A stretch of 58,588 bases of DNA from Bdellovibrionia bacterium (GCA_030424665.1 JAUHWN010000005.1:1-58588); one strand, 5' to 3'; numbered from the stretch's first letter, positions 4,811 to 36,416 are shown. A program made the numbers and translations. Notes: generated by a model from the letters alone, not told the origin.

Positions 4811-4829
4811 GTTCAGTGTTCTTCTCCAT

Positions 4830-5552
4830 TTAGATTTTTGCGTGGATCTTTGATACGAGAATTCTAAAGGACCAGTACCAGTCTATTTTCAATCCATCGA
4901 CACTTATTCCCGCCTGCCCAATGTACTTCTTCCAATCATCTTTGCTAAAACTTCGGGCCACAGACAATGGGGCATCATTTTTTATAAGACGATTCTTCGA
5001 CACCAGCTTCGTTACATACTTAATAAAATAGTAAGCCAGTGGATGCCTGTGAAGGTCGTTGATGATCCAAGCGCGAGTCGAACTCTGGTCCATCCATTTT
5101 ACGAAATTGCGAATTTCTTGATCACCCAAATGGTGCATGAAAAGAGAATTCATAATGACATCAAAAGAGTCCTCTTTGCTGCACTCTAAAGCACACTGAC
5201 GCCGATATTGAACCTTTAAAGAGGGATCTGTGTGAGCTGCTGCTAAGTCCACACATTCGGGGTTGAGATCGAGCCCTAAAAACTCAATATTATAGTCTTT
5301 CTTTTGAGCCCACTGAGCGAGATACCGCAAACTATCCCCAAAACCAAAACCCACATCGAGTACCCGCATCGGCTTAACCTTATAATCTTCAAGATTATAG
5401 ACTCTTTCTAAAAATTGACTCAAAGGAAAATAGGCAGCGGTGAAGCGATTGATTTGCTCCAACTCAGTCAGACACTGTAAAAACTCTTTCTTCGAATAGT
5501 CGCCACTATCCATAAGTTCTTCGGCGTAAGTCCTTTGACTAAAGTCAATCAT
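4830..5552 (-). CDS. SAM-dependent methyltransferase (SrsB-like)
   Basis: SAM-binding motif I RVLDVGFGFGD and the acidic loop LGLDLN. Its ATG overlaps the PKS stop (ATGA), which indicates translational coupling. Confidence 0.85.
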   Translation of the reverse strand: MIDFSQRTYAEELMDSGDYSKKEFLQCLTELEQINRFTAAYFPLSQFLERVYNLEDYKVKPMRVLDVGFGFGDSLRYLAQWAQKKDYNIEFLGLDLNPECVDLAAAHTDPSLKVQYRRQCALECSKEDSFDVIMNSLFMHHLGDQEIRNFVKWMDQSSTRAWIINDLHRHPLAYYFIKYVTKLVSKNRLIKNDAPLSVARSFSKDDWKKYIGQAGISVDGLKIDWYWSFRILVSKIHAKI

Positions 5553-6619: not shown

Positions 6620-6729
6620 TGCTTCTCCCCTTTTGGTTTGAAGAACTAGCATAAAGCAATGTGTGGAAAGGACAAGTCAACAAGGGTAAAACTTAGGTCA
6701 ACAAGTGTTATGACGCCGCTTTTATAGAA

Positions 6730-8025: not shown

Positions 8026-9084
8026 ATGAGTCGTTTACTTTTCCTTTTATTGCTCGTTAGTCCAACGGCGGTTTGGGCCCATAGTTTCGGACGAGACCCT
8101 CTACCTCCAAGTCCCGTTTGGTCCAAGGGAATTGAATTCGGAACTCAAGGCTTTTACCTCCTATCAGAGTCGAACTACATCACTGCCGGAGGAGAATTTG
8201 AACGCCTCCCCAACGAAAATGATATAAGTGCCCTCGGCATAGAGCTCTTTGCCAATTATAGTTTTAATCGAGATTTTCGTATCAATGCTTACGGAGCAAT
8301 CAATCGAGTTGCTGTTACTGATCAAGGGGTAAGTACCTCAAACTTTACAATGGAAGGAATCGGAGGAGGTCTTTCTTACGTTGTCTGGAAAAAATATGTC
8401 CGCGTAATCTTCAAGGGTAAATTCCATTATACGCTCGATGATGTCAGTTATGATCGAACAGATCCTTTGACGGCAGATGGAATTTCCTATGTTCTCCCTG
8501 AACTATATCTTTATAAAAAACTGGGACGAGTGATCCTTTTTACTAATCTCGGGGCCCGCTTTCCTACTGAGGGGTTAGCCAGTCACTTGTTTTGGGGGAT
8601 CGGTAGTAGTTTTCAAACAAAAAAATTTCAGTTTGGCGCGCAGCTTCGAGGGACAAGTTTTATTGGCGTTGATGAGTTTACGCTCACACCCTCCGTTCGA
8701 ACTGATGTCACGGATCGGGTTAATGGTACCAGCCTTCTTTACTATGCCCCAGACCCAGAGCTACTCGATATAACCCTGTGGGGTGGAATGAAAATTCGCC
8801 ACAACCTTTCGATTGCACTTGGATTTAATAGTACAATTGACGGAAAGAACTCGGCAAACAGTAGTTCCTTTTTATTTGCGCTCCGCTATGATATGGGAAA
8901 AAAGAAAAAGTTCCGCAAAAGAACGTCAAGAGTTACCGAAGAAGATTTTAAAATTGAATCGCGCACTGAAAAAATCAGTGTTGATGACGAAGATAGTTTC
9001 ACTACACCAACGCGCTTTGGTGACGACGGTATGCCATTAGAGGATACTGAACAAATGTTGGAAGACAGAATTAATCGCAACTAA
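8026..9084 (+). CDS. Secreted protein, probably an outer-membrane beta-barrel, with a charged C-terminal tail
   Basis: Signal peptide MSRLLFLLLLVSPTAVWA/H. The body has an alternating aromatic/hydrophilic pattern ending FLFALRYDM. A roughly 65 aa K/E/D-rich tail follows. No family recognised. Confidence 0.6.
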   Translation: MSRLLFLLLLVSPTAVWAHSFGRDPLPPSPVWSKGIEFGTQGFYLLSESNYITAGGEFERLPNENDISALGIELFANYSFNRDFRINAYGAINRVAVTDQGVSTSNFTMEGIGGGLSYVVWKKYVRVIFKGKFHYTLDDVSYDRTDPLTADGISYVLPELYLYKKLGRVILFTNLGARFPTEGLASHLFWGIGSSFQTKKFQFGAQLRGTSFIGVDEFTLTPSVRTDVTDRVNGTSLLYYAPDPELLDITLWGGMKIRHNLSIALGFNSTIDGKNSANSSSFLFALRYDMGKKKKFRKRTSRVTEEDFKIESRTEKISVDDEDSFTTPTRFGDDGMPLEDTEQMLEDRINRN

Positions 9085-9669
9085 TTAGGCGATTAATTCT
9101 GTCTTCTCAATCTCTTCTTCGTTGTTATCTTTGATGATTTTCTGAATGAGTTTGTAGATGCGGTCAAGGGGGCGTCTCTCTTCGATGCAATTCACTAAAA
9201 GGCTGCGCTGCCAGTAACTAGGACGAAAACTATCTATTGCATCACTAAGCATACGTGATTGAGAGCGTCGTTCGCCTGAAAACTTAGGCACCTGATAGAA
9301 GTCAGAAAGCGTACCGCCATTGTTCACACAGTCGACAAGGCGAATGGCATAGGCTTCAGCAGAACGTGAAAAGTCGTTTCTAACATCCTCGATAGTTTTT
9401 TCACCCTTGATTAGAAGTTCTTTCCAGAATTTTTGACTTTTAAGATCGGGCTCCCTTTTAAGGATCGATTGATAAATGGTAACCAATTGCTGATCGATTA
9501 AACTCTCATCTAAATCATTATATAACCCGGATTCTTCATCAAATTCTATAATCTCAATAATCTGACTATTAGATTTGAATAGTGAGTTAGATGCGAGTTT
9601 CGATTCCAGCTCTGTCCCCTCAGAGACTGAAAACAAAACTTCAATAATATTACTCGTCAGTTGGTCCAT
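9085..9669 (-). CDS. Hypothetical protein with a DUF4214-like segment
   Basis: The segment VTIYQSILKREPDLKSQKFWKELLIKGEKTIEDVRNDFSRSAEAYA resembles the DUF4214 pattern (lY..iLgRepD..g...W...l..g......v...f..S.E). I prefer the start at ATG 9669 (MDQLTSN) because GGGGGG sits 5 nt upstream; the track start at 9762 lacks a Shine-Dalgarno sequence. Confidence 0.55.
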   Translation of the reverse strand: MDQLTSNIIEVLFSVSEGTELESKLASNSLFKSNSQIIEIIEFDEESGLYNDLDESLIDQQLVTIYQSILKREPDLKSQKFWKELLIKGEKTIEDVRNDFSRSAEAYAIRLVDCVNNGGTLSDFYQVPKFSGERRSQSRMLSDAIDSFRPSYWQRSLLVNCIEERRPLDRIYKLIQKIIKDNNEEEIEKTELIA

Positions 9670-9913
9670 TATTTCCCCCCGAAACTCTTGGCCCAAATAA
9701 ATGGCCCAATTGTCTATTCCCCCCATGTTTCTATCATCCCTCCAAGCGAATGCTTTTCCCACTGATAAAAACTGATTGAACCCATCTCAATATTAGACAA
9801 TTAGGGCCACTCTGTTCGATTTATGCAATTGTTAAGGAAACGTTCAGGACTCTTATATCTAAGACGACTCAATCCAAAATCGATTCAAAAAAAAACATTT
9901 TTTCTCTCAGATC

Positions 9914-9942
9914 AAAAAAAAAGCCCGGAGAACTCTCCAGGC
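9914..9942 (-). terminator. Rho-independent terminator downstream of divIVA
   Basis: Minus strand reads GCCTGGAGA-GT-TCTCCGGGC (one mismatch) followed by T9, 29 nt after the stop at 9971. Confidence 0.6.
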
Positions 9943-9970
9943 TTCGGATATTTTTGTCATTTAAAGGGGA

Positions 9971-10510
9971 TTACTTCATCTCTAGATTGCGAGTCGGACT
10001 CTTGGCCATCGGGTCTCTCTGCCCGCTCGCCGAACTTCGTGGACCCGCTTGGATATCGTTGGTAAACATCTTTCCTTGATCAAGCATGGCCTGATGAGCC
10101 TGAATCAACGCTTTCAGATTGGCTTCGAATTGCATTCGAGATCGTTTGAGGTCAGCAATTTCTTGATAGATTTGCTTGAGAGAATCTTTCGCATCTCGAG
10201 TGATCACATCCGCTTTATGTTCGGCATCTTTAATAATTAATTTCGCCTCTTTCTCGCTATCCTGCTTTATCTGCTCAGACATTTTAGTAGCCGTCTGAAT
10301 CGTCGCTTTAAGAGTTTCATCTCTTTCTTTGTACTCCATAACCGAGAGTTCTTTTTCTCTGAGTTGTTCTTTCAGGGAATTTCGTTCGCGAATGATCTCT
10401 TCCATTTGGTCGGCGACATCACGCATGAAATTATAGACATCTTGAGGCTCTAAACCGTTAAACTTTCTTCTAAAGGTTTTATGTGCGATATCAATCGGCG
10501 CTATTTTCAT
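9971..10510 (-). CDS. divIVA: DivIVA-domain protein
   Basis: The N-terminus MKIAPIDIAHKTFRRKFNGLEPQDVYNFMRDVADQMEEI matches the DivIVA lipid-binding domain signature (I....F....rGYd..eVd.fL). A long coiled coil follows. Confidence 0.85.
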   Translation of the reverse strand: MKIAPIDIAHKTFRRKFNGLEPQDVYNFMRDVADQMEEIIRERNSLKEQLREKELSVMEYKERDETLKATIQTATKMSEQIKQDSEKEAKLIIKDAEHKADVITRDAKDSLKQIYQEIADLKRSRMQFEANLKALIQAHQAMLDQGKMFTNDIQAGPRSSASGQRDPMAKSPTRNLEMK

Positions 10511-11447: not shown

Positions 11448-12140
11448 CTAGTTTCTTTCTCCAAAAATGGCACTTCCTATGCGCAGCAAGGTAGAGCCCT
11501 CTTCGATGGCAATTGGGTAGTCATGAGTCGTACCCATAGACAAGACGTTAAAGTGATCGTTAAGATTCACGGGCAGCTTTTCTTTTAGCTCTGAAAACAA
11601 ATATGATGCATCTTTATAAAAGATCCGCAGCATCTTTTCACTTTCCTGAGGCGGGAAGAACATTAGTCCGCATATTTTAAGAGACCCATAGTTATCAATA
11701 GTTTGAATCAACTCCTCTAATTCCGATGCAGAAAACCCCCCTTTAGTTTCTTCTTCAATGAGATTAACCTGCAAAAGCACCTTTTGCTGAACTCCCAACT
11801 CTCGCGCTTTTTCATTACAGAGTTTCAGAATTTTAAGTCGATCAATAGAGTGAATCAATTCTACCTGACCAATCACATCTTTAACTTTATTGGATTGTAG
11901 GTGACCAATGTAATGCCACTTTATAGCCAGTCTTCCGCCATTGAGTTCTATTTTTTCGTGAAGCTCTTGAACATAATTTTCACCGAAATCATGCAACCCT
12001 AAATTGTATGCTTCTTCAATCTCCATAAAACTCTTCTTTTTCGAGACTGCAACTAATTGTAATTCAGACACGTTTCGCGCGGACCGCGCACAGGCTTCAT
12101 TCATTTGCTTTTTAACCAAAAGGAGTTTATCAGCGATCAA
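11448..12140 (-). CDS. yggS: YggS-family pyridoxal-phosphate homeostasis protein
   Basis: LVAVSKKK (PLP lysine context), WHYIGHLQSNKVK and LSMGTTHDYPIAIEEGSTLLRIGSAIFG are typical of the YggS/YBL036C family. It overlaps the maf stop by 4 nt. Confidence 0.9.
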   Translation of the reverse strand: MIADKLLLVKKQMNEACARSARNVSELQLVAVSKKKSFMEIEEAYNLGLHDFGENYVQELHEKIELNGGRLAIKWHYIGHLQSNKVKDVIGQVELIHSIDRLKILKLCNEKARELGVQQKVLLQVNLIEEETKGGFSASELEELIQTIDNYGSLKICGLMFFPPQESEKMLRIFYKDASYLFSELKEKLPVNLNDHFNVLSMGTTHDYPIAIEEGSTLLRIGSAIFGERN

Positions 12141-12724
12141 ATCATCACTCCAATTTCAGCTAGCTCATTTCTTATCTTCGTAATAGGTAGTCCTACAACG
12201 TTCAAAAAATCACCTTCATAGCTATCGACAAATTCACCCGCTTGCCCTTGAATTCCGTAAGACCCCGCCTTATCCATGGGTTCACCGGTTGCTATGTACC
12301 GATCTATTTGCGCTCGATCGAGAGGTTTAAAACAAACTTGAGTCTGATCGAAAGATTGAATCCACTGTCGACTCGAAGAAACGAAGACCGCATAACCAGT
12401 AACAACAGAGTGTGACTTACCAGAAAGTTTTAATAAAGTTTCTCTTGCTTCTTCTTCGGAGACCGGCTTTCCGAGAATTTCTCCTTCGAAAACAACAATT
12501 GTATCTGCTCCGATGAAAATTGCCTGATCCTCATTGTCGAATTGATTTGAACGAATGTAGGCCTCGACTTTAGCCCGAGCCACTTGGGAGACAGCTTTTT
12601 CAATACTTAAATCTGGATTTAAGAACTCCTCAATGTCGACCTTAACAACTTTAGGTGAAATTCCAGCCTCTTCAAGGATCTGCTTCCGGCGGGGCGACTG
12701 GGAGACTAAAACAATGGGAGCCAT
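12137..12724 (-). CDS. maf: Maf-family nucleoside triphosphate pyrophosphatase
   Basis: LVSQSPRRKQILEEAGI, the GADTIV context and DKAGSYGIQG are the conserved Maf motifs. Confidence 0.9.
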   Translation of the reverse strand: MAPIVLVSQSPRRKQILEEAGISPKVVKVDIEEFLNPDLSIEKAVSQVARAKVEAYIRSNQFDNEDQAIFIGADTIVVFEGEILGKPVSEEEARETLLKLSGKSHSVVTGYAVFVSSSRQWIQSFDQTQVCFKPLDRAQIDRYIATGEPMDKAGSYGIQGQAGEFVDSYEGDFLNVVGLPITKIRNELAEIGVMI

Positions 12725-13094
12725 GATTGATTTAGACCATAAATATCTAAAAAGAGAAAGCTTTTTAAAGCTCAGTCCAGACTGTAAAGAGTATGGCCAG
12801 AGGGCCCCCTCTAGAGGGTCATTTGTAAATTGGACGACCAGAAATTTTACAACTTTAGTCTAGGTTCACCCCCAGCGCCCCTAGTGACCTAAATTAACTT
12901 AATAATTTCAATTAGTTACACCAAACAATTGAGGCAAAAATCTATCGCTAAACGATTCAGCAAATTCAGGTTTTCACTAGGAATTTCCGATAGTTCCTAA
13001 TGAAGAGCCATATTTTTTAAAAAGATGGTCCTTTAAGAATACGTTGGAGAACAGTCTTTCTTGTCGTCGAGATAGACACTCTGTTGGGGATATT

Positions 13095-13988
13095 ATGAGC
13101 AATGATCTTTTACTTTACGGTGGACTCGTACTCGCGGGTTATAGCGTCTACCTGATTATACTTTCAATTTTTGGAGACAACTCTGAGGGCCAACTTCAAT
13201 GGGCGACCGGTGACGAACCTCAAAAGTCACCCGTCCCACTCATAGAAACGTCCCGCCCACTCGTTCACCAACTCACACTTCACCACGCTCGAAGAATCAA
13301 AAGTGAGAACTATCGCAAGAAGGTAGAATACAAAATCTTAACGGCGGGCTGGGAAGCTTCCCTCGCAGTCGATGAATACATTGGCTTGCAAATTCTCTGG
13401 GGAGTTCTCTTGCCAGTCCTCCTTGTCGTAATGAAGTTTGCACTTTCGTTAGATTACAATCTCTTTATCCCGATCGCTCTCGGTCTCGTCGGTTTCTTTT
13501 TACCGGGAATGATGGCCAATAGCTCTAAGAAAGAGCGATATACGGCAGTCATTTTAGATCTTCCTTTCTTTATTGATTTATTAGCGCTTTCAACTGAAGC
13601 AGGTCTCGACTTTATTGGCTCAATAAAGAAGATCGTGGAAAAAGCCAATGGCAGTGTTCTCGCCGACGAATTCGATAAAGTAATGCGAGACATTTCATTG
13701 GGAGCCACGCGAGAGCGCGCACTCAAAGACATGTCTTATCGCCTAGATATCAACGAGGTCACAAGCTTCGTCAACGTTTTAACAGACGCTGATGCCACCG
13801 GTGCCAGCATCTCGACAGTTTTAAAAGATCAATCGGAACAAATGAGGTTAGAGCGTTTTGTCCGTGCCGAGAAAGCCGGTGCCAAAGCCTCACAAGCAAT
13901 GCTACTGCCCATGATGGCTTTTATTTTACCCGCGGTTTTCATCATGGTTTTTGCTCCCGTTGCACTACAATTTTTCTATGGGAAATAA
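13095..13988 (+). CDS. Type II secretion system F-domain protein (TadB/TadC-like inner-membrane platform)
   Basis: One T2SSF-type domain: LPFFIDLLALSTEAGLDFIGSIKKI...LGATRERALKDM....VLTDADATGASISTVLKDQSEQMR, flanked by TM helices. I prefer the start at ATG 13095 because GGGGA sits 5 nt upstream. Confidence 0.8.
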   Translation: MSNDLLLYGGLVLAGYSVYLIILSIFGDNSEGQLQWATGDEPQKSPVPLIETSRPLVHQLTLHHARRIKSENYRKKVEYKILTAGWEASLAVDEYIGLQILWGVLLPVLLVVMKFALSLDYNLFIPIALGLVGFFLPGMMANSSKKERYTAVILDLPFFIDLLALSTEAGLDFIGSIKKIVEKANGSVLADEFDKVMRDISLGATRERALKDMSYRLDINEVTSFVNVLTDADATGASISTVLKDQSEQMRLERFVRAEKAGAKASQAMLLPMMAFILPAVFIMVFAPVALQFFYGK

Positions 13989-14008
13989 AATTGGGTCAAG
14001 AGGATAGA

Positions 14009-14356
14009 ATGAGAAAGTTAGTTAATCAGACCAAGAACATAACCATCGCTGAAAAAGTTATCGAAGCCGATAGCATAGGCACGCGCATGGTTGGCCTTAT
14101 GTTCAAGGATAGCTTTCCAGAAAACCAGACTCTTTGGATTTCTCAATGCAATTGGATTCACACTTTCTTTTGTCGCTTTCCACTCGATGTCGTGTTTGTC
14201 GATAAAAAACTCATTGTAAAGGGAATAAAACGGCAACTCAAACCATGGAGACTTCCAGGCCCTGTTTTTTCGGCCAACTCAGTTTTTGAACTGACAGCAG
14301 GTCAAGCGGCTACAAACCAAATTGAAATCGGAGATCAACTCTATGTGGGCAATTAG
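14009..14356 (+). CDS. DUF192 (UPF0127) family protein
   Basis: A....GLMFKD......LWIS.CNWIHTFFCRFPLDVVFVDKKLIV...........SVFELTAG.......IGDQL follows the DUF192 pattern. ATG 14009 has GAGGA 6 nt upstream and lies 20 nt after the TadC-like stop. Confidence 0.75.
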   Translation: MRKLVNQTKNITIAEKVIEADSIGTRMVGLMFKDSFPENQTLWISQCNWIHTFFCRFPLDVVFVDKKLIVKGIKRQLKPWRLPGPVFSANSVFELTAGQAATNQIEIGDQLYVGN

Positions 14357-16016
14357 ACTACTCAACGGAAAAAAGGCCGGTAAAGTTTGTCCACTCAAGG
14401 AGGGGTCAAACATACTAGGACGAGGTCCCGAGGCCACAATTAAAATCGCTTCTTCAGGTGTCTCCAAGACTCATGCGAAGTTTCACATCAGTGGAGATAA
14501 AATTATTGTTTCTGATATGAACTCTAGAAACGGAACTTTTATTAATGGTGTCCGCATACAAAACCAAAGAGTTCACATTGGTGACAAGATCGCTCTTCAC
14601 GACGTTATTATTGAAATACTAAATTTGCCAAACGCAGCCGTATCACCCATGGTTTCTCCAAATCAAGGGGTGCCCATGGTCCAAGGTAATGCCGCCGTGC
14701 AAATGAATCCGCAAATGATGCAACAGATGCAAGCCAATCCACAGATGATGCAGCAACAAATGGGGATGCCACAATACCAACAAATGGAAGATGATGAGGA
14801 AGAGACGGAAAGAGCTCCTACATCAATTCGATCTTGGGATGATGTCATGTACTACGTACATAAGTACATCGACGACGTAGCTATGCCAGGGGTTTATAGA
14901 CTCGTAGAGCTCTTTGAATTTAAGTTTGTGATGCTCGGCTTTGTCATCGCCTTTATCTTTCTAGTGACCTTTCTCTCTGTGATTCCAATGTCGCAAATGA
15001 CAAAAGAAAATATTCAAAAAGAGAGTCAACGAAGAGCCTTAACTATCGCTACAAATTTGGCTCTCTTTAACCGCGGTATTGTCAATGACCGCAGTGGTTT
15101 TACCGCCGAAACGAGAATGGCTGAACGGGAAGAAGGCGTAGAAAAGGCTTTTATAGTTAGCGCAAAAAACAGTGGCGCTATCATTGCCCCGGTAGGTATA
15201 TCTAGCTCCTACGCGAGACAACCCTTTGTAGCAAAGGCTAGAAAACAAGATGACCGCATCGTCGAGCAAATCACAAGTACCAAAATTGGTGCAGCCGTTC
15301 CGATTAAAGTATTCGACTCCACTACTGGGAATCAAACGGTTCATTCTTACGCAGTCGTTATCTACAACATGGATGGTCTGGCGATTGATTTCAAAAGAAC
15401 ATTGAGCCTCTTTATACAGATTTTCATTGTCGCATGCCTACTCGGCTCTTTACTTTACTTCATCCTCTATAAAATCAACACCTTCCCGTACGTTTCTCTA
15501 AATAAACAGATGAACGTTGCTCTTAAAGAAGGACGAGATGATTTAGAGGTTGAATATAAATTTCCTGAGTTGCAAAATTTAATATCAAATATAAATAGCT
15601 CTTTAAGTCGAGCTGCCCTCGCTGGAGCAGCTCCCGACAATATGGGTGATTCAACTACCTCTAAAGAAGAAGAAGCAGAGGCCCTCGTCAATATGATGGG
15701 CTGGGGAGCTTTTGCAGTTAGTGCCATCGACGAACGAATCATTTATGCCAACGATGCCTTTATCGACCAAATGCTCGGTGGCGCTGGTGGCATCCAGGGA
15801 CAGGGAATTGAATCACTAACAGACCCGGCCCTACAAGAGTCATTAAAGGACTTAATTATTCAACTTCAAAGTGGAATCCCACAAGCTATGAACCAACTTC
15901 CTAGTCAGGGATCAGAAATGTTTGAAATTACAGGGCGAACAATTTATGGCTCGCAAGAGCCAGCCTATTACATCTTTAGTGTCGTGCAAAGAGATGCTGA
16001 GGAGGATTACGGATAA
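14343..16016 (+). CDS. FHA-domain membrane protein (FHA, M/Q/P-rich linker, TM, extracytoplasmic domain, TM, PAS-like C-terminus)
   Basis: FHA signature NILGRGPEATIKIASSGVSKTHAKFHISGDKIIVSDMNSRNGTFINGVRI. Low-complexity tract MNPQMMQQMQANPQMMQQQMGMPQYQQ. Two hydrophobic helices: FVMLGFVIAFIFLVTFLSVIP and LSLFIQIFIVACLLGSLLYFILY. The C-terminal segment FAVSAIDERIIYANDAFIDQML...YYIFSVVQRD looks PAS-like. ATG 14343 has GGAG 9 nt upstream and overlaps the DUF192 stop by 14 nt. Confidence 0.85.
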   Translation: MWAIRLLNGKKAGKVCPLKEGSNILGRGPEATIKIASSGVSKTHAKFHISGDKIIVSDMNSRNGTFINGVRIQNQRVHIGDKIALHDVIIEILNLPNAAVSPMVSPNQGVPMVQGNAAVQMNPQMMQQMQANPQMMQQQMGMPQYQQMEDDEEETERAPTSIRSWDDVMYYVHKYIDDVAMPGVYRLVELFEFKFVMLGFVIAFIFLVTFLSVIPMSQMTKENIQKESQRRALTIATNLALFNRGIVNDRSGFTAETRMAEREEGVEKAFIVSAKNSGAIIAPVGISSSYARQPFVAKARKQDDRIVEQITSTKIGAAVPIKVFDSTTGNQTVHSYAVVIYNMDGLAIDFKRTLSLFIQIFIVACLLGSLLYFILYKINTFPYVSLNKQMNVALKEGRDDLEVEYKFPELQNLISNINSSLSRAALAGAAPDNMGDSTTSKEEEAEALVNMMGWGAFAVSAIDERIIYANDAFIDQMLGGAGGIQGQGIESLTDPALQESLKDLIIQLQSGIPQAMNQLPSQGSEMFEITGRTIYGSQEPAYYIFSVVQRDAEEDYG

Positions 16017-17011
16017 TGAATCAACCGATGATGGGTGAACATAGGATCCTGATTGCTTCAGGTCCAGATAAAGGAAGAGCTTTTAGAATTCTTCCTCCCC
16101 AAGTTCGTTTAGGTAGAGACCTGGACAACGACATCGTATTGACTGATCCGAGAATAAGTAGAAATCACCTCGTCCTAGAATTTATCGAGGGGCGCTTAAA
16201 AGTAAGGGATATCTCTAAAAGACCTGGATTAAAGGTTAACTCGAAGCCGACAAAAGAGGCCGGTCTCAATAACGGAGACCAAATCTTACTGGGCTCTACA
16301 AAAATGCTCGTGCAGGTCGTGCAAATGAACCAAGGAGCTGCTCTTCAGGTTGCTCAAGGTGGCCAAGCTATGACCCAAGCTCAGCAAGGATCATCAGGGC
16401 TAGGTCCTTCAGCCTATCAAAACTACGGTCAGCCGGGTCCCAATCCAAACATGCAGTCTGCCAAAAAGGGTGGCGGCAAAAAGCCACTGATCTACATTGT
16501 TGTCGGAGCCATTTTACTCTTTCTTTTTTTAGGCGATAGCGACACCAAAAAGAAGAAAGTCGATGACTACGACATTACTACTTCAGAAGAAATGGATGAA
16601 CTGATTGAAGAGACACAGAAGCGAAATCAAGAGATGAGAGAAAAAAGATCATTTGCTTCAGTCGAAGAGAAAATCAGATATGAAACCGCCCAAGCTCACT
16701 TTATTATCGGTCGACGAGATTATACCAAGGGCAAGTTTGACCGGGCCATCGAAGCCTTTCAAACGGCCTTGGCCAGTGACCCCAATCACGAGGATGCCAG
16801 ACGTTACTACTACTTAGCAAAAAAACGGAGAGATGAAGTCATCGACTCCCATCTCAGAGAGGGACAATACTACGCCAATAATTCTCATTACGATAAATGT
16901 GCATCATCTCTATTGAAAGCGATGGTAATGATTAATAACCCGCAGGAAGAAAAGTACAAACAAGCTAAAATAAAAAGAGAGCAATGTCAGTTGCAAATGG
17001 AGAATAGATAG
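16016..17011 (+). CDS. FHA-domain membrane protein (FHA, Q/G/P-rich linker, TM, TPR-like region)
   Basis: FHA-like VRLGRDLDNDIVLTDPRISRNHLVLEFIEGRLKV; the second half of the signature is degenerate. Q-rich linker, TM helix LIYIVVGAILLFLFL, and a TPR-like segment AIEAFQTALASDPNHEDARRYYYLAK. TAATG stop/start overlap with the upstream gene; GAGGAGG Shine-Dalgarno. Confidence 0.85.
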   Translation: MNQPMMGEHRILIASGPDKGRAFRILPPQVRLGRDLDNDIVLTDPRISRNHLVLEFIEGRLKVRDISKRPGLKVNSKPTKEAGLNNGDQILLGSTKMLVQVVQMNQGAALQVAQGGQAMTQAQQGSSGLGPSAYQNYGQPGPNPNMQSAKKGGGKKPLIYIVVGAILLFLFLGDSDTKKKKVDDYDITTSEEMDELIEETQKRNQEMREKRSFASVEEKIRYETAQAHFIIGRRDYTKGKFDRAIEAFQTALASDPNHEDARRYYYLAKKRRDEVIDSHLREGQYYANNSHYDKCASSLLKAMVMINNPQEEKYKQAKIKREQCQLQMENR

Positions 17012-19048
17012 TTGCATAAACTCAAGGTTTTAGAAAGAGGAATAGAAATACTCGAAGTCGAACTCCAGGTCGATTCTGAGTACATTGTTGGACGCAAGTC
17101 CGACTGTGATATTGTTCTTGAGGAACATCCCGGTATTTCTCGGCAACATTTCAAAGTCTACCACGATGGAGCCTCTTGGACTGCTGAAGTACTTTCACAT
17201 TTTGGTGAAGTGTTTTACCAGGGCCAAGTGACGACCCATATTTCTCTCAATGAGGGAGATCAATTTGAACTTCGCCCTTATACTTTCAAATTTCTAGAAG
17301 AGATTCCCGAAGCTCAAGAAGATTCCAGCGAAAATCAGCAGGCTGGAAGCTCAAAAAATTTACCATCCATTGCACCGGCGCAAAATCAAGGTGGACCGGC
17401 GAATCCTCAGGCTCTCCCGGTTATACAGCAACCAATATCTGCTCAGAACCTTATTAATGAATTTAATGAGGACAATGATGATGACGATTTTATCGATGAA
17501 ATAACTAATCCAGGCGTATCCTCGGTGAAACCCTATATTCGAATTCGTCGCGAAAAATCTAAGAAAGAAAAAGTGTTGCGCCTCGAAGGAAATTACTGGG
17601 TACTGGGAAGGGATGAAAACTGTGAAATCACCCTCCCCGACCCTAAAGCAAGTCGTAAACACTTTGAAATAATAAAGAAGAATGCCGACTTTTTTATCTC
17701 GGACCTCGGTTCGGCCAACGGAACTCAAGTCAACGGTCAGACACTCACAAAAGGTCAAAGTAGAAAACTCGAAAGTGGTGATATTATTGTCATCAATAAT
17801 TTGAGTATTTTCTTTGAGATGAGAGATCCCAGTTTTAAGTCGCGCCTTGAAGAAGTTCCTGACGAAATTAAAAACAATTTACCAATGCCCGTTGGTGGCA
17901 ATTTACCGATGGCTATGAATCAGCAATTCGCGGCTCCCATGATGTACGACCCGAACATGGCCATGGGCTTTCCGATGGAAGCTGAAATTGAACCGCCAAA
18001 AAGTTTCTATCAAAAACATAAAAAACAAATTTTATTAGCTGCCATAGCAATCGTTTTTCTGGCCCTTCTCATGCCCGGCAGCGAAGAGAGCGGCGAAAAA
18101 GACCTCTCTACCGAAAAAGTGGCTTTTAACAAGTTATCTGAAGACCAACAAAGAATTGTCATCGAGACTTATAAACTTGCTAAGAACCTTTACATTAAAG
18201 GAAATTTTCAACTGGCAGCAACTCAATTAGAGAAGTTACATCGCATCATTGATAACTATGAAGAGTCTCAACAAATAGCAAAATTTTGTCAAAGCTCAAT
18301 CGACATGCAACTTGAACAAGATCGAATCAAAGAGATGCGTGAACGAGAACGACTGATGAAGATGAAAGTACAAAGTATCATTGCAAATTGCCAAGAGATG
18401 GCGATGAGTACAGATGATATTGAAGCGATTAAATCGTGCCTAGCCCCGGCTCGAGAAAACGATCCATCAAATCCTGCGATTGATTCGATCTTAACTGAAG
18501 TTCAAATGCGTCAGGATGCAAAAGAAGAGGAAGCCAAAAGAAGAGCCCGTCATCGTGCTCGAGTACAAAAGGGACGCGTTCTTTTTCAGACAGCCGAAGC
18601 TCTTAAGGATGAAAAGAAATGGCTCAAGGCTATCGATGCCTACGAAAAACATATTTCATCGGCCTATCCAGACCCTGACAAATTGAAACAGAAGTCTCAA
18701 AGGTCTATCGCCTCGATTGAAACGAATATGAATAAGGCTCTTGGCAAAGTCATGCAAGCGGCACAGGACCTCTATTCTCAAGGCAACCTTGCAAATGCCA
18801 TCAATGAAGCCAAGAAAACCTTAGTAATGAATCCGAACTATTATGAAGCCGTTAGTTTTATAGAGAAGGTTAAGAAGGAGCTTAATTCTCAACTTAGGAA
18901 CATTTATACTGACTCAGTCCTCGAAGAGCGTTTCGGTAACATTGATGCAGCCAAAGAGAAGTGGCGAAAGATTAAGAGTCTCGATATTAAAACTGGCGAA
19001 TATTACAACAAGGCAAAGCGAAAGCTCAAGCAATATGGGGAGGCTTAA
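17012..19048 (+). CDS. Double-FHA membrane protein (FHA, FHA, M/P-rich linker, TM, multiple TPR-like repeats)
   Basis: Two FHA signatures: YIVGRKSDCDIVLEEHPGISRQHFKVYHDG and WVLGRDENCEITLPDPKASRKHFEIIKKNADFFISDLGSANGTQVNGQ. M/P-rich tract NLPMPVGGNLPMAMNQQFAAPMMYDPNMAMGFPM. TM helix ILLAAIAIVFLALLM. Several TPR-like helical pairs follow. The TTG start abuts the upstream TAG and has GGAG 10 nt upstream. Confidence 0.85.
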   Translation: MHKLKVLERGIEILEVELQVDSEYIVGRKSDCDIVLEEHPGISRQHFKVYHDGASWTAEVLSHFGEVFYQGQVTTHISLNEGDQFELRPYTFKFLEEIPEAQEDSSENQQAGSSKNLPSIAPAQNQGGPANPQALPVIQQPISAQNLINEFNEDNDDDDFIDEITNPGVSSVKPYIRIRREKSKKEKVLRLEGNYWVLGRDENCEITLPDPKASRKHFEIIKKNADFFISDLGSANGTQVNGQTLTKGQSRKLESGDIIVINNLSIFFEMRDPSFKSRLEEVPDEIKNNLPMPVGGNLPMAMNQQFAAPMMYDPNMAMGFPMEAEIEPPKSFYQKHKKQILLAAIAIVFLALLMPGSEESGEKDLSTEKVAFNKLSEDQQRIVIETYKLAKNLYIKGNFQLAATQLEKLHRIIDNYEESQQIAKFCQSSIDMQLEQDRIKEMRERERLMKMKVQSIIANCQEMAMSTDDIEAIKSCLAPARENDPSNPAIDSILTEVQMRQDAKEEEAKRRARHRARVQKGRVLFQTAEALKDEKKWLKAIDAYEKHISSAYPDPDKLKQKSQRSIASIETNMNKALGKVMQAAQDLYSQGNLANAINEAKKTLVMNPNYYEAVSFIEKVKKELNSQLRNIYTDSVLEERFGNIDAAKEKWRKIKSLDIKTGEYYNKAKRKLKQYGEA

Positions 19049-19728
19049 TGAATTTTGAAAGCCGATCCTACGGCGGAAAGTACTTTAGACCCTCACCAGA
19101 TATTCACCAAGACGAGGGACTGCCACTTCTGATTATCAGTACTCCTTGGGGCGTTTCTAATGGCTCGCAAAAGGTCTTTGATCGCATGCTCGAGTATTTG
19201 CAACTGGCGCAAAAAGACGAGGAAATTACTTCGCCTTTTCCGAGGCAAACCTGTTTAGGCTCTGTTGCTAATAACCTGCGGATCGCCACGCTTCTTGCCA
19301 ACGCAGCTCTGTATAAAGAAGAAAATCAAACTGAATACTCTTCAGGAACTGAACTCTTCGCCTGCTACAAAGAGGATAACGAGTTCACCTGGATTCAAGT
19401 CGGACAACCCAATATCGTTCTCTGTCGGGAAGGGGAAACGCCAATGCCACTCGGCTCCTTTCCTGACCTGGTACTCGACTTCGAAAGGCAAGAGACAAGA
19501 CTCTCCCCCTTACCATCTAACCTTATTGGGATTGAAAACAGCCTGAACCTCAACATAAGTTCCTTTCGTCCAAATAAGGGGGATAAAATCTTATTAATAA
19601 GTCGGTCTCGGGTACCGGGAACTTTGTTTAGTTTAGAAAACAAAGATATTAATCTGGACCTTGTAAGCCGTACCTTAGCTAAGGACCGAGAAGACCAGCC
19701 TTTTTGGTTAGGCCTTATCGAGATATAA
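19048..19728 (+). CDS. PP2C-like protein lacking the catalytic Asp residues (putative pseudophosphatase)
   Basis: Aligned by eye to the active PP2C at 55529..56263. LLIISTPWGVSNGSQ aligns with LYMVADGMGGHRGGD. GTELFACYKEDNEFTWIQVGQPN aligns with GTTLVVAFMHKDTLYIGNVGDSR. GDKILLISRSRVP aligns with GEMVLMCSDGLSG. The fold-level pattern is kept but the metal-binding Asp positions are replaced. TAATG overlap with the upstream gene; GGGGAGG Shine-Dalgarno. The CDS itself is solid; the family call is tentative. Confidence 0.5.
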   Translation: MNFESRSYGGKYFRPSPDIHQDEGLPLLIISTPWGVSNGSQKVFDRMLEYLQLAQKDEEITSPFPRQTCLGSVANNLRIATLLANAALYKEENQTEYSSGTELFACYKEDNEFTWIQVGQPNIVLCREGETPMPLGSFPDLVLDFERQETRLSPLPSNLIGIENSLNLNISSFRPNKGDKILLISRSRVPGTLFSLENKDINLDLVSRTLAKDREDQPFWLGLIEI

Positions 19729-19753
19729 TGAATGAGTTAGGAGACTTGCATAT

Positions 19754-20542
19754 ATGCAAAACGCAGTAGCTAAAGACACGACATACGAATGGGGACTCAG
19801 TCATGGTCCTATTCAATCCCCCCGTTTTGGGAACCATGTTGAAGTGAATCCTCTCGGCCAAGAAAAGGTTTGCTCATTCGACTGCCCTTACTGCAATCTT
19901 GGTCCTTCTTATATGCGAATGAATCAGATCAAAAAGGAATATGAATTCCCTAGCATCGCCGAAATAGAAGAAAGTACGCGAATGACATTGAGAGCTGCTC
20001 GGGCCAACAATGAAAATTTGAATACTATTTTGGTGTCCGGAAACGGTGATCCTAGTCTCTATCCCAACTTATCAGAATTGTATGATATGTTGTCGAATGT
20101 CAGAGATGATATTTATCCAGACGCATCTATTGAAATACTCACTAATGGGGCAAAAATCGACACACGCAAATCCATTGATGCTATGAACAAGTTCGAAAAG
20201 ATACACATCAAATTGGATGCTGGCAGCGACAAAGTTCTTAAGCAAATTAACACACCCCTAGTTCGTACAACGATTTCACAAATCGTATCGACCGCCAGGA
20301 AACTAGAAAATGTGGTCATTCAAAGTCTCTTTGTCCAAGGGATTATGGATAATACCACCGACAGTGAAGTCGAAGAGTGGGTTGAGTCGATTAGTTTAGT
20401 CGAGCCAAAAGAAGTTCATATCTACACACTTCAACAGGACCCTCAAGTTCCTGGCATAAAAAAGGCTGATGAAAATCGACTCTATTTTATATCTTCGATT
20501 CTTGAGCGTAAAAAGAAGATCAAAACCCTAGTTGTTCCTTAG
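19754..20542 (+). CDS. Radical SAM protein (small, COG0731-like)
   Basis: CX3CX2C cluster motif CSFDCPYCNLG follows the GPIQSPRFG N-terminal motif. VSGNGDPSLYP is a SAM-binding GGE-like region. AGGAG Shine-Dalgarno; 25 nt after the upstream stop. Confidence 0.8.
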   Translation: MQNAVAKDTTYEWGLSHGPIQSPRFGNHVEVNPLGQEKVCSFDCPYCNLGPSYMRMNQIKKEYEFPSIAEIEESTRMTLRAARANNENLNTILVSGNGDPSLYPNLSELYDMLSNVRDDIYPDASIEILTNGAKIDTRKSIDAMNKFEKIHIKLDAGSDKVLKQINTPLVRTTISQIVSTARKLENVVIQSLFVQGIMDNTTDSEVEEWVESISLVEPKEVHIYTLQQDPQVPGIKKADENRLYFISSILERKKKIKTLVVP

Positions 20543-20589
20543 GAATATTTTTTCAGAAAATGGAGCCTGAACTCGAGTTGCTCAGGCTT

Positions 20590-22425
20590 TCAATGAAAAT
20601 TTCGTAACACTCTTCTTGCAACTATTTTCATATACCTAGAGTTTTCAGGTAACCTTAAATAAAGCTCTGTCAGGTTTGGCTCGGTCGGTTGTTCTAAAGG
20701 CAGATCCCAGTTGAGTTCATTAACATAGTTCAGTTCATAAATTTTCAAACCGAGCATATAAGACTCGAATTGCCTTAAAAATCGCTCACGAAATAAATCT
20801 ACATCGGCCGGGTTAGCGTAAACCCAGTTGAGAAGGGCAATAAACAAAAGGTCATCACATTCTCTAAGACGAGGTACTTCGATGGACTCACGACTACTGA
20901 AATATTTGTTACAGCCCTTTTTGAATGGCTGAACTCGAAGTGACAAGTTTCTTCGACCCACATAGGACCAGAGTTTATTTTTATACATCCGTCCCATCTT
21001 TAATAGTTGTTCCCAATTATTGTCTCGTAGAGCTTGTCTCGCAGACCAGGCCGCCAACTGATAGTCTTTTGGATCTAACTCTGTTAAAAATTCCAGTTCT
21101 TCGAGGGCTGGAAAACTGACGTCTCTTCGTCCCCAGAGCCCCTTAGTAACTCTTACCTTGCGTTCAAAATTTGAAGTTAAACCCGAGTACTTCTTTTTAT
21201 CTTCTGTGGGAATAATTTTATCCAAACTCACTTTCAGTTCAGTAAAACGACTTTCTGACTCTGGAATAGGTGAACTTTCAAGGCGATCTGTAAGTGTATT
21301 GTAAATTTTAATGGGCTTATCAAATACGTATAGGAGGTGACCCTTACGAATACTCATCCGTGGCGAGCCAATGCCTGTCCACACCGGCCAATGGGATGAC
21401 ACCATGATCGGTCTGTTCTCTTTCCATGTAGCTTCAGGACCCTGAAGAACATCAAGGAGAGATACAATTTCGAGTTGAGAACTCACAGGTCTATAGGGGC
21501 GGCCCTCTAAAATTTCAAAAAGTGTTACTCCGACATCGACCAAACTGACATTTCGATCTACTTTCCAATTAAAGGGCCCGTCCCGGGTTTTACGGGCGGG
21601 TTTAATAAACAGTGCTACATGGGTTCTATCACTAAAAATATTGACTTGAGCTAACTCCCCAATCCTTGGCGATTCAATTCTTGAATTCAAACCCACGAGA
21701 ACAACATGTGTTTTATCCCACTTCTTCCTTCGCTTGAGATCAGAAACGAGATCGGCAATGGATTCATCAATTTCTTGAAGTTGGGCCTGTGGAGAGCTTT
21801 CGCGTACAACACCAAGTTTGTTCGTAGTGGGTGTTTGTTCAAACTGAACATCGGGCAAATAGATCATACTAAAAAAGCTCTGCGAGCCCGTTAGACTATC
21901 GAGCCAAGTGGTAAAGCGCTTAAAGTTTTCTGAAACCGGTCGATAGAGACTTTTTAAATTGGGCCGAATTCGATCATCGAAATGTTGAAAACCCTGGTGA
22001 AAACCCGATTTTCTGAAAACAGGGGGTCCTCCCGAAAAGAAAGAGGTAGCAAAGTTTTGATAAAATGCCACTTCTCCAAGGGTCTGCAAACCGCTTTTGA
22101 GGTAATAACTTCCATTTGCATAGACCTTATGCTCTCGCGGATATTTCGCTGTTAGGAGAGAGGCTAAACTAGGGACACTCATTGGCGAAGGGCTATAGGC
22201 ATGGCTAAACCGAACTGCTTCGTTACAAAAAGCTTCAAAACCACCCTTAATTTGATCGGCATTAACATTACTACAAGTGATATCCTCAAAACCGAGACCC
22301 TCTACCGCAATCACTAAGACAGATGGTCTAGCTTTTTTGAGAAAGGTACATGCCGATTGCGTCATACAGAGCATGAGAAGCAAGAGAAAATATTTTAATT
22401 TTTTTCCAGTCTTGGAAAGCTTCAA
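20590..22425 (-). CDS. Alkaline-phosphatase-superfamily (sulfatase-like) lipoprotein with a degenerate active-site motif
   Basis: VLVIAVEGLGFEDI and SPSPMSVPSLASLLTAKYPREHKV align with the sulfatase N-terminal motifs (DD... / C-x-P-S-R...LLTG). Here SVPSL replaces CxPSR. I prefer the TTG start at 22425, which has GAGG 8 nt upstream and gives (M)KLSKTGKKLKYFLLLLMLCMTQSAC. The track start at 22521 would overlap exbB. Confidence 0.6.
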   Translation of the reverse strand: MKLSKTGKKLKYFLLLLMLCMTQSACTFLKKARPSVLVIAVEGLGFEDITCSNVNADQIKGGFEAFCNEAVRFSHAYSPSPMSVPSLASLLTAKYPREHKVYANGSYYLKSGLQTLGEVAFYQNFATSFFSGGPPVFRKSGFHQGFQHFDDRIRPNLKSLYRPVSENFKRFTTWLDSLTGSQSFFSMIYLPDVQFEQTPTTNKLGVVRESSPQAQLQEIDESIADLVSDLKRRKKWDKTHVVLVGLNSRIESPRIGELAQVNIFSDRTHVALFIKPARKTRDGPFNWKVDRNVSLVDVGVTLFEILEGRPYRPVSSQLEIVSLLDVLQGPEATWKENRPIMVSSHWPVWTGIGSPRMSIRKGHLLYVFDKPIKIYNTLTDRLESSPIPESESRFTELKVSLDKIIPTEDKKKYSGLTSNFERKVRVTKGLWGRRDVSFPALEELEFLTELDPKDYQLAAWSARQALRDNNWEQLLKMGRMYKNKLWSYVGRRNLSLRVQPFKKGCNKYFSSRESIEVPRLRECDDLLFIALLNWVYANPADVDLFRERFLRQFESYMLGLKIYELNYVNELNWDLPLEQPTEPNLTELYLRLPENSRYMKIVARRVLRNFH

Positions 22426-22498
22426 TGCCTTGACCTCGTTCGCGCTAGGTAGCGATAATTTATAATTGTAAAACTGCGGTGCAAAGGAGCCAATCGTT

Positions 22499-23137
22499 AT
22501 GATGGAAAAATTTTTCGCCATTTCTCAAACTGGAGCTGATGTTATTTTGTGGCTTTTAGTCCTGCTCAGTGTGATCAGTCTTGCACTAATATTTGAACGC
22601 TTTTTTACTCTTAAAAAAGTTAAATCAAATAGTGCCAGAGTACAAAATAGAATTCGAGATATTCTTCAAACTTATAACTTAGAAGAGGTCGATGACCTCA
22701 GCAAAGATAGAGATTCCCTCGAAGGAAGGGCTCTCAGCTACGGATTAAGACATGCCAAATCAAATGGCGCTAAGGGTCTTGAGGAGATTTTTAATTCATT
22801 TACTCTCGTCGAAAGGCCAGCATTAGAACGTAATTTAAATTTTTTGGCCACCATTGGCTCGAATGCTCCTTATCTCGGACTTCTTGGTACCGTTTTAGGA
22901 ATCATGAAGGCCTTTAACGATTTGGCGATGTCACCGGGCACTGGCAATGAAGCCGTCATGGCCGGAATTGCCCACGCCCTTGTAGCAACAGCCATTGGAC
23001 TTCTCGTTGCCATTCCTGCAGTAATTGCCTTTAACACCTTTTCAAAACAGGTAAGAACTGTTCTCCAAAACATAGATGCTACCAAAGAATTGTGCCTGGC
23101 CTACGCAAAGCGTACTGGAGGCCCAAATGGCCAGTAA
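22499..23137 (+). CDS. exbB: MotA/TolQ/ExbB proton-channel family protein
   Basis: Three TM helices and the conserved LATIGSNAPYLGLLGTVLGIMKAF...ALVATAIGLLVAIPAV motif. Confidence 0.9.
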   Translation: MMEKFFAISQTGADVILWLLVLLSVISLALIFERFFTLKKVKSNSARVQNRIRDILQTYNLEEVDDLSKDRDSLEGRALSYGLRHAKSNGAKGLEEIFNSFTLVERPALERNLNFLATIGSNAPYLGLLGTVLGIMKAFNDLAMSPGTGNEAVMAGIAHALVATAIGLLVAIPAVIAFNTFSKQVRTVLQNIDATKELCLAYAKRTGGPNGQ

Positions 23138-23540
23138 AACCGACGGGACCAATTACGATGAACCAATAGCAGAAATGAATGTCATCCCGCTTGTGGATGT
23201 CATTCTCGTTGTACTTATTATTTTCATGGTAACAGCTCCCTTGGTTATGAAGCCCACGATCGACATTAATCTGCCCAAAGCCGCTAGTGGCGAAGAATCA
23301 ACGCAAAGTTCTCTTATCAATGTCAGCATTACACCCACTGGCGATTTACTCTTTAATGGTCAACCCTCTAGTGTTAATGAGATTAATGAACGGGCAAAAG
23401 CTCTTGTCGCCGAAAACCCAGATATTCCTGCCATTTTACTGGCTGATAAGACAGTAACCTTAGAAATTCTTACTCAAGTTGTTGATGCAGTTAAAACCGC
23501 GGGAGTAAAGAAAGTCGCCTTCAGTATCGAAAAGAAGTAA
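23127..23540 (+). CDS. exbD: ExbD/TolR family protein
   Basis: EMNVIPLVDVILVVLIIFMVTAP is the ExbD/TolR TM signature. I prefer ATG 23127 because GGAGG sits 6 nt upstream; it overlaps the exbB 3' end by 11 nt. Confidence 0.9.
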   Translation: MASKTDGTNYDEPIAEMNVIPLVDVILVVLIIFMVTAPLVMKPTIDINLPKAASGEESTQSSLINVSITPTGDLLFNGQPSSVNEINERAKALVAENPDIPAILLADKTVTLEILTQVVDAVKTAGVKKVAFSIEKK

Positions 23541-36349: not shown

Positions 36350-36416
36350 TCAGGCCCATAGCCTAGCTGCCTCCATTTTTAGACTCAGCTAGGCCCTAAA
36401 GATTCCCGATAAGACA

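Follow-up and report, generated by a model that had tools for sequence, protein, structure and literature searches.

We analysed a stretch of 58,588 nucleotides (nt) from a Bdellovibrionia bacterium (GCA_030424665.1 JAUHWN010000005.1:1-58588; the whole of this stretch is called the window below), in which a cluster at 13095-20542 carries seven same-strand (+) open reading frames (ORFs), g1-g7, as determined from the ORF list and by direct reading of the junctions. With a probability that we put at about 75%, this locus represents the "tadC operon" of Bdellovibrionales, which corresponds to Bd0470-Bd0475 in Bdellovibrio bacteriovorus HD100, and acts as the platform and accessory module of a Tad/Kil machine. 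The locus itself is already known, in that it is an uncultured relative's copy of a published, partly characterised operon. Compared with the papers cited below, our analysis adds the recognition of the Bd0475 family as a PP2C-fold pseudophosphatase and of the second gene as a DUF192 gene, the conservation of the overlapping junctions across the order, and the placement of the radical SAM gene outside the unit. The seven genes are as follows (aa, amino acids).

13095-13988, + strand: g1, TadC-type inner-membrane platform protein, 297 aa, T2SSF; probable equivalent of Bd0470/KilH
14009-14356, + strand: g2, DUF192 protein, 115 aa; probable equivalent of Bd0471
14343-16016, + strand: g3, FHA domain, linker, transmembrane segment, periplasmic domain, transmembrane segment and PAS-like domain, 557 aa; probable equivalent of Bd0472
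16016-17011, + strand: g4, FHA domain, low-complexity linker, transmembrane segment and periplasmic TPR, 331 aa; probable equivalent of Bd0473
17012-19048, + strand: g5, two FHA domains, linker, transmembrane segment and TPR-rich periplasmic domain, 678 aa, TTG start; probable equivalent of Bd0474
19048-19728, + strand: g6, cytoplasmic PP2C/PPM-fold pseudophosphatase, 226 aa; probable equivalent of Bd0475
19754-20542, + strand: g7, small radical SAM enzyme, 262 aa; often adjacent but outside the conserved core

Several published studies describe the HD100 genes. Seef et al. identified Bd0470 as the reciprocal-best-hit ortholog of Myxococcus xanthus KilH (TadC) (PMC8460266, supplementary file 2). 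Duncan et al. scored the transposon mutant BD0470::tn (TadC) as attach-/kill-/round- and BD0474::tn as attach+/kill-/round-, and both were complemented (PMC6561027). Bd0470-Bd0475 form one operon, in which Bd0473 is a 386 aa FHA protein, Bd0474 a 674 aa protein whose two FHA domains (2-100 and 134-241) are cytoplasmic and whose TPR domain (363-673) is extracytoplasmic, and Bd0475 a 228 aa hypothetical protein; AlphaFold-Multimer predicts contact between Bd0473 and Bd0475 (ipTM 0.604), and Bd0474 binds Bd0075, a GYF-transmembrane-TPR protein also needed for predation, as confirmed by two-hybrid assay (PMC12034629). In HD100, tadC is encoded beside FHA/TPR/PAS genes and apart from tadB and the main tad cluster, with TadB, the TadA ATPase, the RcpA secretin and the Flp pilins encoded at other loci; deletion of tadC was not achieved, TadC-mCherry is seen together with RomR in a focus at the invasive pole, and depletion of TadZA-TadB, RcpA or TadG leaves only transient attachment and blocks prey remodelling and invasion (bioRxiv 10.64898/2026.07.08.737194).

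These reports bear on an earlier interpretation of the window made from the DNA alone (the sequence-only reading). Its proposal of an accessory or regulatory arm of a Tad-like machine encoded elsewhere agrees with the separation of the B. bacteriovorus tadC locus from the main tad cluster (bioRxiv 10.64898/2026.07.08.737194), and the predation role that it considered conceivable is borne out by the predation defects of the Bd0470 and Bd0474 mutants (PMC6561027). The phosphothreonine scaffolding that it proposed is still putative, though in keeping with the conserved binding residues described below. Its description of TadC as an "orphan" does not stand, as the published inventory makes the HD100 TadC the machine's only TadC (bioRxiv 10.64898/2026.07.08.737194). 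Nor is the composition undescribed, as it had supposed: it has appeared in print as Bd0470-Bd0475 (PMC12034629, PMC6561027), and there is a counterpart by kilH (PMC8460266).

The window's cluster and the HD100 operon share their gene order (TadC, a small protein, FHA, FHA, a protein with two FHA domains, a transmembrane segment and TPR, and a protein of ~228 aa) and closely similar protein lengths at its end (678 aa for g5 against 674 aa for Bd0474; 226 aa for g6 against 228 aa for Bd0475). They also share the FHA, TPR and PAS domains beside tadC, the class Bdellovibrionia, and a tadC locus with no other tad core genes alongside it. The host differs in being an uncultured Bdellovibrionia metagenome-assembled genome (MAG). 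Homolog searches and a genome scan returned only MAG or metagenome proteins, none from B. bacteriovorus, and checks by residue motif and physicochemical fingerprint found no HD100-identical sequence. A search with the published Bd0474 interface residues (N382, Y384, M385, Q386, Y389) gave one ortholog, which did not match, and a cluster look-up of ten 228 aa members of the g6 family gave no named B. bacteriovorus entry. The gene of a "Bd0486 family" outer-membrane protein, which lies ~22 kb further downstream in this window, adds weakly to the synteny.

The latter protein, of 746 aa (41462-43702, +), has no Pfam match and is hit by the NCBIfam model "Bd0486 family outer membrane beta-barrel protein" at 5.5e-46, below its cut-off. 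It also matches the MXAN_2562 family and a CFI-box-CTERM domain; the family is common to Bdellovibrio and Myxococcus.

At 46-65% identity over most related loci (defined below), g1 is the cluster's most conserved gene. It matches Pfam T2SSF (PF00482) at E = 4e-16 over aa 159-286, has about four transmembrane segments by hydropathy, and has homologs at 60-65% identity that are named "tight adherence protein C" by JGI. It thus has the single T2SSF/GspF domain and the polytopic inner-membrane form, at ~300 aa, by which TadC is recognised. That it might be a stray tadC paralog was considered and rejected on the basis of its 46-65% conservation in most relatives and its published essentiality. The g2 product, a small cytoplasmic protein, matches Pfam DUF192 at E = 1.8e-17 and has no signal peptide and no hydrophobic or transmembrane segment; a literature search found no functional study of DUF192. 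Searches of Protein Data Bank (PDB) sequences with g1, g2 and g7 gave no match.

The genes are packed closely. From g1 to g7 the junctions measure +20, -14, -1, 0, -1 and +25 nt; the 1 nt overlaps at 16016 and 19048 are of the ATGA type, and TAG and TTG abut at 17011/17012. Every start is preceded, 7-17 nt upstream, by a purine-rich Shine-Dalgarno-like motif (GGAG/GAGG/GGGGA), and the ATG start of g1 at 13095 (297 aa) fits the ortholog lengths of 297-303 aa. The coordinates, junctions, Shine-Dalgarno motifs, 370 bp upstream spacer and convergent downstream gene given in the sequence-only reading were reproduced exactly from the ORF list and direct reading; its T2SSF, DUF192, four FHA, TPR and radical SAM calls all passed the Pfam thresholds, and its degenerate PP2C fold was recovered by structure prediction, fold search and the motif losses set out below. 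A Pfam scan of the cluster and the other 40 ORFs of the window detected no secretion ATPase, pilin, prepilin peptidase, secretin or Hanks kinase, again as it had stated.

To follow the cluster in other genomes, we ran a profile of g6 relatives on a collection of species-representative genomes, which yielded 43 related loci. The best of these, a Bdellovibrionia MAG contig (JAUICP010000002.1), is 99% identical to the window, and the remainder all come from Bdellovibrionales, Pseudobdellovibrionaceae or Bdellovibrionaceae MAGs. Synteny was mapped by tblastn of 15 window proteins on all related loci, together with gene calls with Pfam. Every locus of sufficient length shares the order and strand of g1-g6, including those in which g6 is 27-33% identical. 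The median gaps at g1/g2, g2/g3, g3/g4, g4/g5 and g5/g6 are -1, -14, -1, -1 and -1 nt, and gaps of at most 30 nt were found, in the same junction order, in 34/34, 35/35, 35/37, 39/39 and 35/38 genomes. The g2/g3 junction is an overlap of 14-26 nt (median 14 nt) in all 35 genomes scored. These junctions thus stay overlaps or tiny gaps in ~35-39 divergent genomes, a coupling of g1-g6 that goes beyond chance.

The g6/g7 junction is loose (median gap 47 nt; at most 30 nt in 10/31), and the radical SAM gene, adjacent in 27 relatives, lies 0.6-3.3 kb away in 4 and is missing from this position in 11-12; the separation is sometimes by an opposite-strand gene, as in locus L002. Because the g1-g6 junctions are tight, the g6/g7 junction is loose and g7 is missing or displaced in about a third of the relatives, the conserved, translationally coupled unit is six genes, g1-g6, with g7 as a frequent neighbour. 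A seven-gene operon, as the sequence-only reading had it, was therefore rejected in respect of its last member, which is not kept in place across relatives, while the tight coupling and conservation of the first six genes stood. The g7 product itself matches Radical_SAM (PF04055) at E = 1.4e-12, and its CxxxCxxC motif reads C-SFD-C-PY-C in translation; no NCBIfam subfamily reaches its cut-off for this protein. One relative (L030, about 8300-10000) has an insertion of ~1.7 kb that separates its g5 and g6 homologs; no other large interruption was seen within the six genes.

No Pfam family matches g6, and the NCBIfam Stp1 model scores 13.6 bits against a cut-off of 230. An AlphaFold2 model from a 15-sequence alignment (pLDDT 88.9, pTM 0.88) was compared with the PDB by Foldseek; its top match was the PP2C phosphatase tPphA (E = 1.3e-13, TM-score 0.66-0.71), and other matches included PstP, PppA, Stp1, SpoIIE, RsbX and the phosphatase-like domain of RssB. 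There were 149 PDB matches at E <=0.001, and the 50 listed were all PPM-fold phosphatases or phosphatase-like domains. The g6 family profile also reached tPphA at E = 1e-3 in a search of PDB sequences. A whole-library profile search gave 484 cluster representatives of this family at E <=0.001, and those listed are nearly all stand-alone proteins of ~225 aa.

The catalytic motifs of PP2C enzymes were placed on g6 by the tPphA alignment and by hhalign to the window's canonical PP2C, the latter at a weak score (E = 0.2). In this register RxxNED is replaced by R14-P-S-P17, DGMGG by T32-P-W-G, GDSR by G-Q120-P-N and SDG by S-R186-S, such that the metal-coordinating Asp positions are held by P17, T32, Q120 and R186. 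The replacements are the family consensus (RPxP, TPWG, GxP, SRS). We therefore read g6 as a predicted pseudoenzyme with a PP2C fold, for which catalysis is very unlikely because the four metal-ligand positions are gone; an active PP2C was rejected for the loss of these catalytic residues. The family has, as an insertion relative to tPphA, a loop between two long helices with the invariant or near-invariant sequence D57-x-E59-x-T61-S-P63-F64. The loop's conserved Thr61, with a hydrophobic residue at +3, resembles an epitope recognised by FHA domains, a likeness that we offer as speculation.

A canonical PP2C gene also lies in the window, 35 kb from the cluster (55529-56263, -), with RERNED, DGMGG, GDSR, SDG and DDN intact and a PP2C_2 match at 7.9e-19. 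It adjoins an M23 peptidase gene (54425-55429). Its product could be an active phosphatase of the same phospho-network, with no kinase nearby.

The three genes between g2 and g6 encode FHA proteins, whose FHA domains are tethered to the membrane by Q/P/M/N-rich linkers. In g3, an N-terminal FHA domain (Pfam E = 1.8e-14) is followed by a Q/P/M-rich linker and by transmembrane segments, predicted by hydropathy at aa 196-214 and 356-374, that flank a periplasmic domain of ~140 aa; a search with that domain gave no match. PAS families match its cytoplasmic C-terminal domain in 11/25 sequences (best E = 1.9e-6). From its predicted architecture g3 has the shape of a membrane sensor without a kinase module. 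g4 matches FHA (1.9e-13), Yop-YscD_cpl (2.9e-17) and TPR_2 (8e-8) in Pfam, with a transmembrane segment at aa 157-175. g5 matches FHA twice (E = 4.2e-31) and TPR weakly, with a transmembrane segment at aa 339-357 and a periplasmic domain of ~320 aa. The periplasmic TPR-like domains of g4 and g5 align with each other by hhalign (91.8%, E = 7e-7), and from this similarity the two appear to be paralogs.

The GR, SxxH and NG residues of FHA domains have an established role in phosphothreonine binding. In alignments of 38-41 sequences (the window's and orthologs) with an overall identity of ~30-40%, the phosphate-contacting Arg of the GR motif and the Ser of the SxxH motif are conserved at >=95% in all four FHA domains. 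The g3 domain and the second domain of g5 keep the complete GR / SxxH / NG(T) set (38-39 sequences; >=95% across 38 for g3); the g4 domain keeps GR and, within SxxH, Ser-Arg, whereas its NG motif is not conserved. That these residues persist at such low overall identity supports a predicted binding of phosphothreonine by two or more of the FHA domains.

A number of observations weigh against our assignment of the locus and against its phospho-dependent function, and we gather them here. g4, at 331 aa, is 55 aa shorter than Bd0473 (386 aa), and the orthology of g1-g6 to the HD100 genes is inferred from architecture, order, protein lengths and taxonomy. Gene order alone is weak evidence for a functional link, because the flanking housekeeping genes (divIVA-proC-yggS-maf upstream, sulfatase-exbB-exbD-lipB downstream) are equally syntenic. 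No phosphosite is known for the cluster, and Pfam found no Ser/Thr kinase, either within the window or, for those related loci whose genes were listed, in their flanks. The conserved Asn is absent from two of the four FHA domains, those of g4 and the first of g5, and all four also match the phospho-independent type III secretion system (T3SS) model Yop-YscD_cpl (PF16697), at E 5.6e-12 to 2.7e-24.

The equal synteny, in the same genomes, of unrelated housekeeping genes on both sides is what would be expected if the cluster reflected conserved chromosomal synteny with no functional tie between tadC and the genes downstream. We hold this to be highly improbable. The start/stop overlaps are conserved (14-26 nt at g2/g3, in 35/35), as against the insertions and losses that occur right after g6; predation is impaired in the Bd0470 mutant and the Bd0474 mutant alike, and published work treats these genes as a single operon (PMC6561027, PMC12034629); and there is a parallel adjacency in Myxococcus (PMC8460266).

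The features of the FHA domains bear on the main rival, which is not exclusive with the tadC operon assignment: the FHA-transmembrane proteins would be a purely structural, phospho-independent inner-membrane ring or alignment subcomplex of the Tad machine, as are SctD/PrgH, or GltG on AglRQS, with g6 as a structural adaptor and with no kinase. The Yop-YscD_cpl matches of all four domains, the lack of a kinase in the window and conserved flanks, and the missing Asn in two domains all fit this picture, as does the GltG FHA domain, modelled as binding AglR and GltI without phosphorylation (PMC11761067). In addition, MXAN_4649, the FHA protein listed beside M. xanthus KilH, is annotated as PrgH-like (PMC8460266, supplementary file 1). 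Set against these points are the high conservation of the phosphate-contacting Arg and of the Ser in the four domains and the complete residue set in the g3 domain and the second g5 domain. The GR, SxxH and NG residues are degenerate in YscD/PrgH. Moreover, the full-length SctD model TIGR02500 scores 21-23 bits against a cut-off of 86, the periplasmic parts are of TPR type and not ring-building, and a PP2C-derived protein in the operon points to phospho-signalling ancestry. On balance we consider the purely structural account possible but unlikely. Membership of the SctD/YscD/PrgH family was rejected on the same TIGR02500 scores, with only the cytoplasmic model PF16697 matching and with periplasmic parts that are TPR or, in g3, match no family.

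A further alternative assigns g2-g6 to another envelope machine, either an Agl-Glt-like gliding motor or a nearby ExbB/ExbD motor, with which they would belong while merely sharing the tadC operon. Partial NCBIfam GltG matches (2.4e-11, 2.7e-6 and 6.9e-8) lend it some support; so do the layout of the Bd0474 partner Bd0075 (GYF-transmembrane-TPR), which resembles that of GltJ (PMC12034629, PMC11761067), and the phenotype of the Bd0474 mutant, which is unlike that of the TadC mutant (PMC6561027), and there is an exbB-exbD pair 2 kb downstream that is syntenic in relatives. The GltG matches, though, cover FHA only, at 26-43 bits against 650, and both a convergent gene and a variable region separate the exbBD pair from the cluster. 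Relatives retain the translational coupling that runs from tadC through g2, g3, g4 and g5 to g6, and in Myxococcus the adjacency of TadC, FHA and FHA-TPR genes is found in the kil table, separate from the agl/glt loci (PMC8460266). We judge this alternative improbable. GltG membership as such was rejected, with NF033760 scores of 42.9, 26.2 and 31.5 bits against the cut-off of 650, in the FHA region only.

The downstream pair consists of an ExbB/MotA-type gene and an ExbD gene (22499-23540, +) and is syntenic in nearly all related loci. The Myxococcus FHA-transmembrane protein GltG has been modelled as binding the AglRQS channel (PMC11761067), a homolog of ExbB/ExbD, and by analogy a link of the pair to the cluster's FHA-transmembrane proteins is conceivable.

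Comparison with other known systems places the tadC operon assignment in context. Like the window, Kil cluster 2 of M. xanthus (MXAN_4648-4650) has a Tad platform gene (kilH) beside an FHA gene (MXAN_4649) and an FHA+TPR gene (MXAN_4648), and in both cases FHA domains are over-represented around a predation-linked Tad machine (PMC8460266). Myxococcus differs in having kilH in one large cluster beside kilG (TadB), kilB and pilins, in having no reported DUF192 or PP2C-like gene there, and in having an FHA domain on the ATPase KilF itself. The comparison, based on the descriptions in the published gene table, points to a TadC-FHA protein link shared by predatory Tad machines.

The PpkA/PppA/Fha1 pathway of the type VI secretion system (T6SS) likewise has FHA and PP2C-fold proteins encoded with an envelope machine, and g6 has PppA (6jkv) among its nearest structural matches (Foldseek E = 1.3e-10, TM-score 0.64-0.67). 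The cluster differs in that it has no kinase, that g6 is without the catalytic acidic residues and cannot work as PppA does, and that its FHA proteins are membrane-anchored with periplasmic TPR domains. A pathway of this type was rejected because neither the window nor the listed genes of related loci contain a Pkinase domain and because g6 is read as a dead phosphatase.

With GltG/GltJ and SctD/PrgH the cluster's proteins share a bitopic inner-membrane form with an N-terminal cytoplasmic FHA or FHA-like domain, and a periplasmic extension through which a motor in the cytoplasm or inner membrane is joined to outer components of the envelope; they differ in that their C-terminal parts are TPR and not TonB-CTD or ring-building motifs. 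PPM-fold pseudophosphatases are known as adaptors, as in the C-terminal domain of RssB and in TAB1. g6 resembles these in having a PP2C fold without a working metal site, and the Pseudomonas aeruginosa RssB domain (3f79) is among its fold matches. It differs in being a stand-alone protein of ~226 aa with its own invariant loop (D57-x-E-x-T61-S-P-F64) and nil sequence similarity to them.

We propose the following mechanism. g1 would serve as TadC, the platform subunit in the inner membrane, for a type IVc pilus machine of the Tad/Kil type, whose ATPase, TadB, secretin and pilins would be encoded elsewhere in the genome; in B. bacteriovorus the Tad machine occupies the invasive pole, and both lasting attachment to prey and invasion require it (bioRxiv 10.64898/2026.07.08.737194). 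g2-g6 would form an accessory module co-produced with TadC. The bitopic FHA-TPR proteins g4 and g5 may surround the TadB/TadC platform with a scaffold that is seated in the inner membrane and extends into the periplasm, where their TPR domains would touch other envelope proteins (compare Bd0474, which contacts Bd0075 by way of its periplasmic TPR domain), while their cytoplasmic FHA domains would dock phosphothreonine-bearing or other cytoplasmic partners. g6 may be a non-catalytic adaptor that shields a bound phospho-epitope or serves as an FHA ligand through its D-x-E-x-T-S-P-F loop, and g3 would provide sensory input. The module would act after attachment, coupling pilus engagement to prey remodelling and killing; Bd0474 is needed after attachment, and the transposon TadC mutant fails to attach (PMC6561027). 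The phospho-dependence and the order of events in this scheme are inferred.

A more specific version, which we advance tentatively and think slightly less likely than the structural account, is a checkpoint that would operate after attachment by a logic of "dead phosphatase plus FHA". Here g3 and the two FHA-TPR proteins would read an engaged Tad machine or a prey-contacted envelope, and g6 would clamp a phosphothreonine on a Tad component or present its Thr61 loop to an FHA domain, such that remodelling and invasion would be licensed only after firm attachment. The predatory Tad machines of Bdellovibrionota and Myxococcota would have inherited the TadC/FHA linkage as an ancestral trait.

Prey attack by Bdellovibrio and Myxococcus relies centrally on the Tad/Kil machine, and earlier authors pointed to the surrounding FHA proteins as likely regulators of it. 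The present locus bears on how the machine is switched on at prey contact and on how attachment becomes killing or invasion. The order-wide conservation of the six-gene unit with its overlaps, the PP2C pseudoenzyme and the retained FHA residues turn "hypothetical proteins" into testable candidates.

The cluster is bounded by the following features.

12137-12724, - strand: maf, divergent neighbour upstream
12725-13094, no strand assigned: divergent intergenic spacer between maf and tadC, 370 bp; presumed promoter region
20564-20588, no strand assigned: hairpin with a 9 bp stem, lying between the stop codons of g7 and of the convergent sulfatase-like gene; terminator-like site, - strand
20590-22521, - strand: sulfatase-like gene, convergent neighbour downstream

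The spacer upstream of tadC is 370 bp here, as compared with ~29-167 bp in the relatives with listed gene calls. A GC-rich palindrome, AGAGGGCCCCCTCT, can be read by eye around 12800-12815, and a repeat scan of the spacer found only weak repeats. Scans for sigma-70 promoters and terminators gave site counts not above those in shuffled sequence, and Rfam had no match in the window, the upstream spacer included.

Elsewhere in the window, several ORFs of 166-397 aa, at 8026-9084, 25414-26595, 35657-38688 and 43796-44989, have no Pfam or NCBIfam match. ARAGORN called a tRNA-Pro (anticodon AGG) at 40710-40788 (-), inside the aspartate-semialdehyde dehydrogenase gene at 40363-41382 (+); the call is probably a false positive, as Rfam shows no tRNA there. 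At 50500-53249 (-), a gene for an ECF-type sigma factor is followed, with a stop/start overlap, by one for a 741 aa vWF_A/VWA/YfbK_C protein, and the pair looks like a sigma factor with its regulator. Finally, 3668-7932 (-) holds a biosynthetic-looking set made up of an MFS transporter, a type III polyketide synthase (chalcone/stilbene synthase domains), a SAM methyltransferase and an FAD-dependent oxidoreductase.

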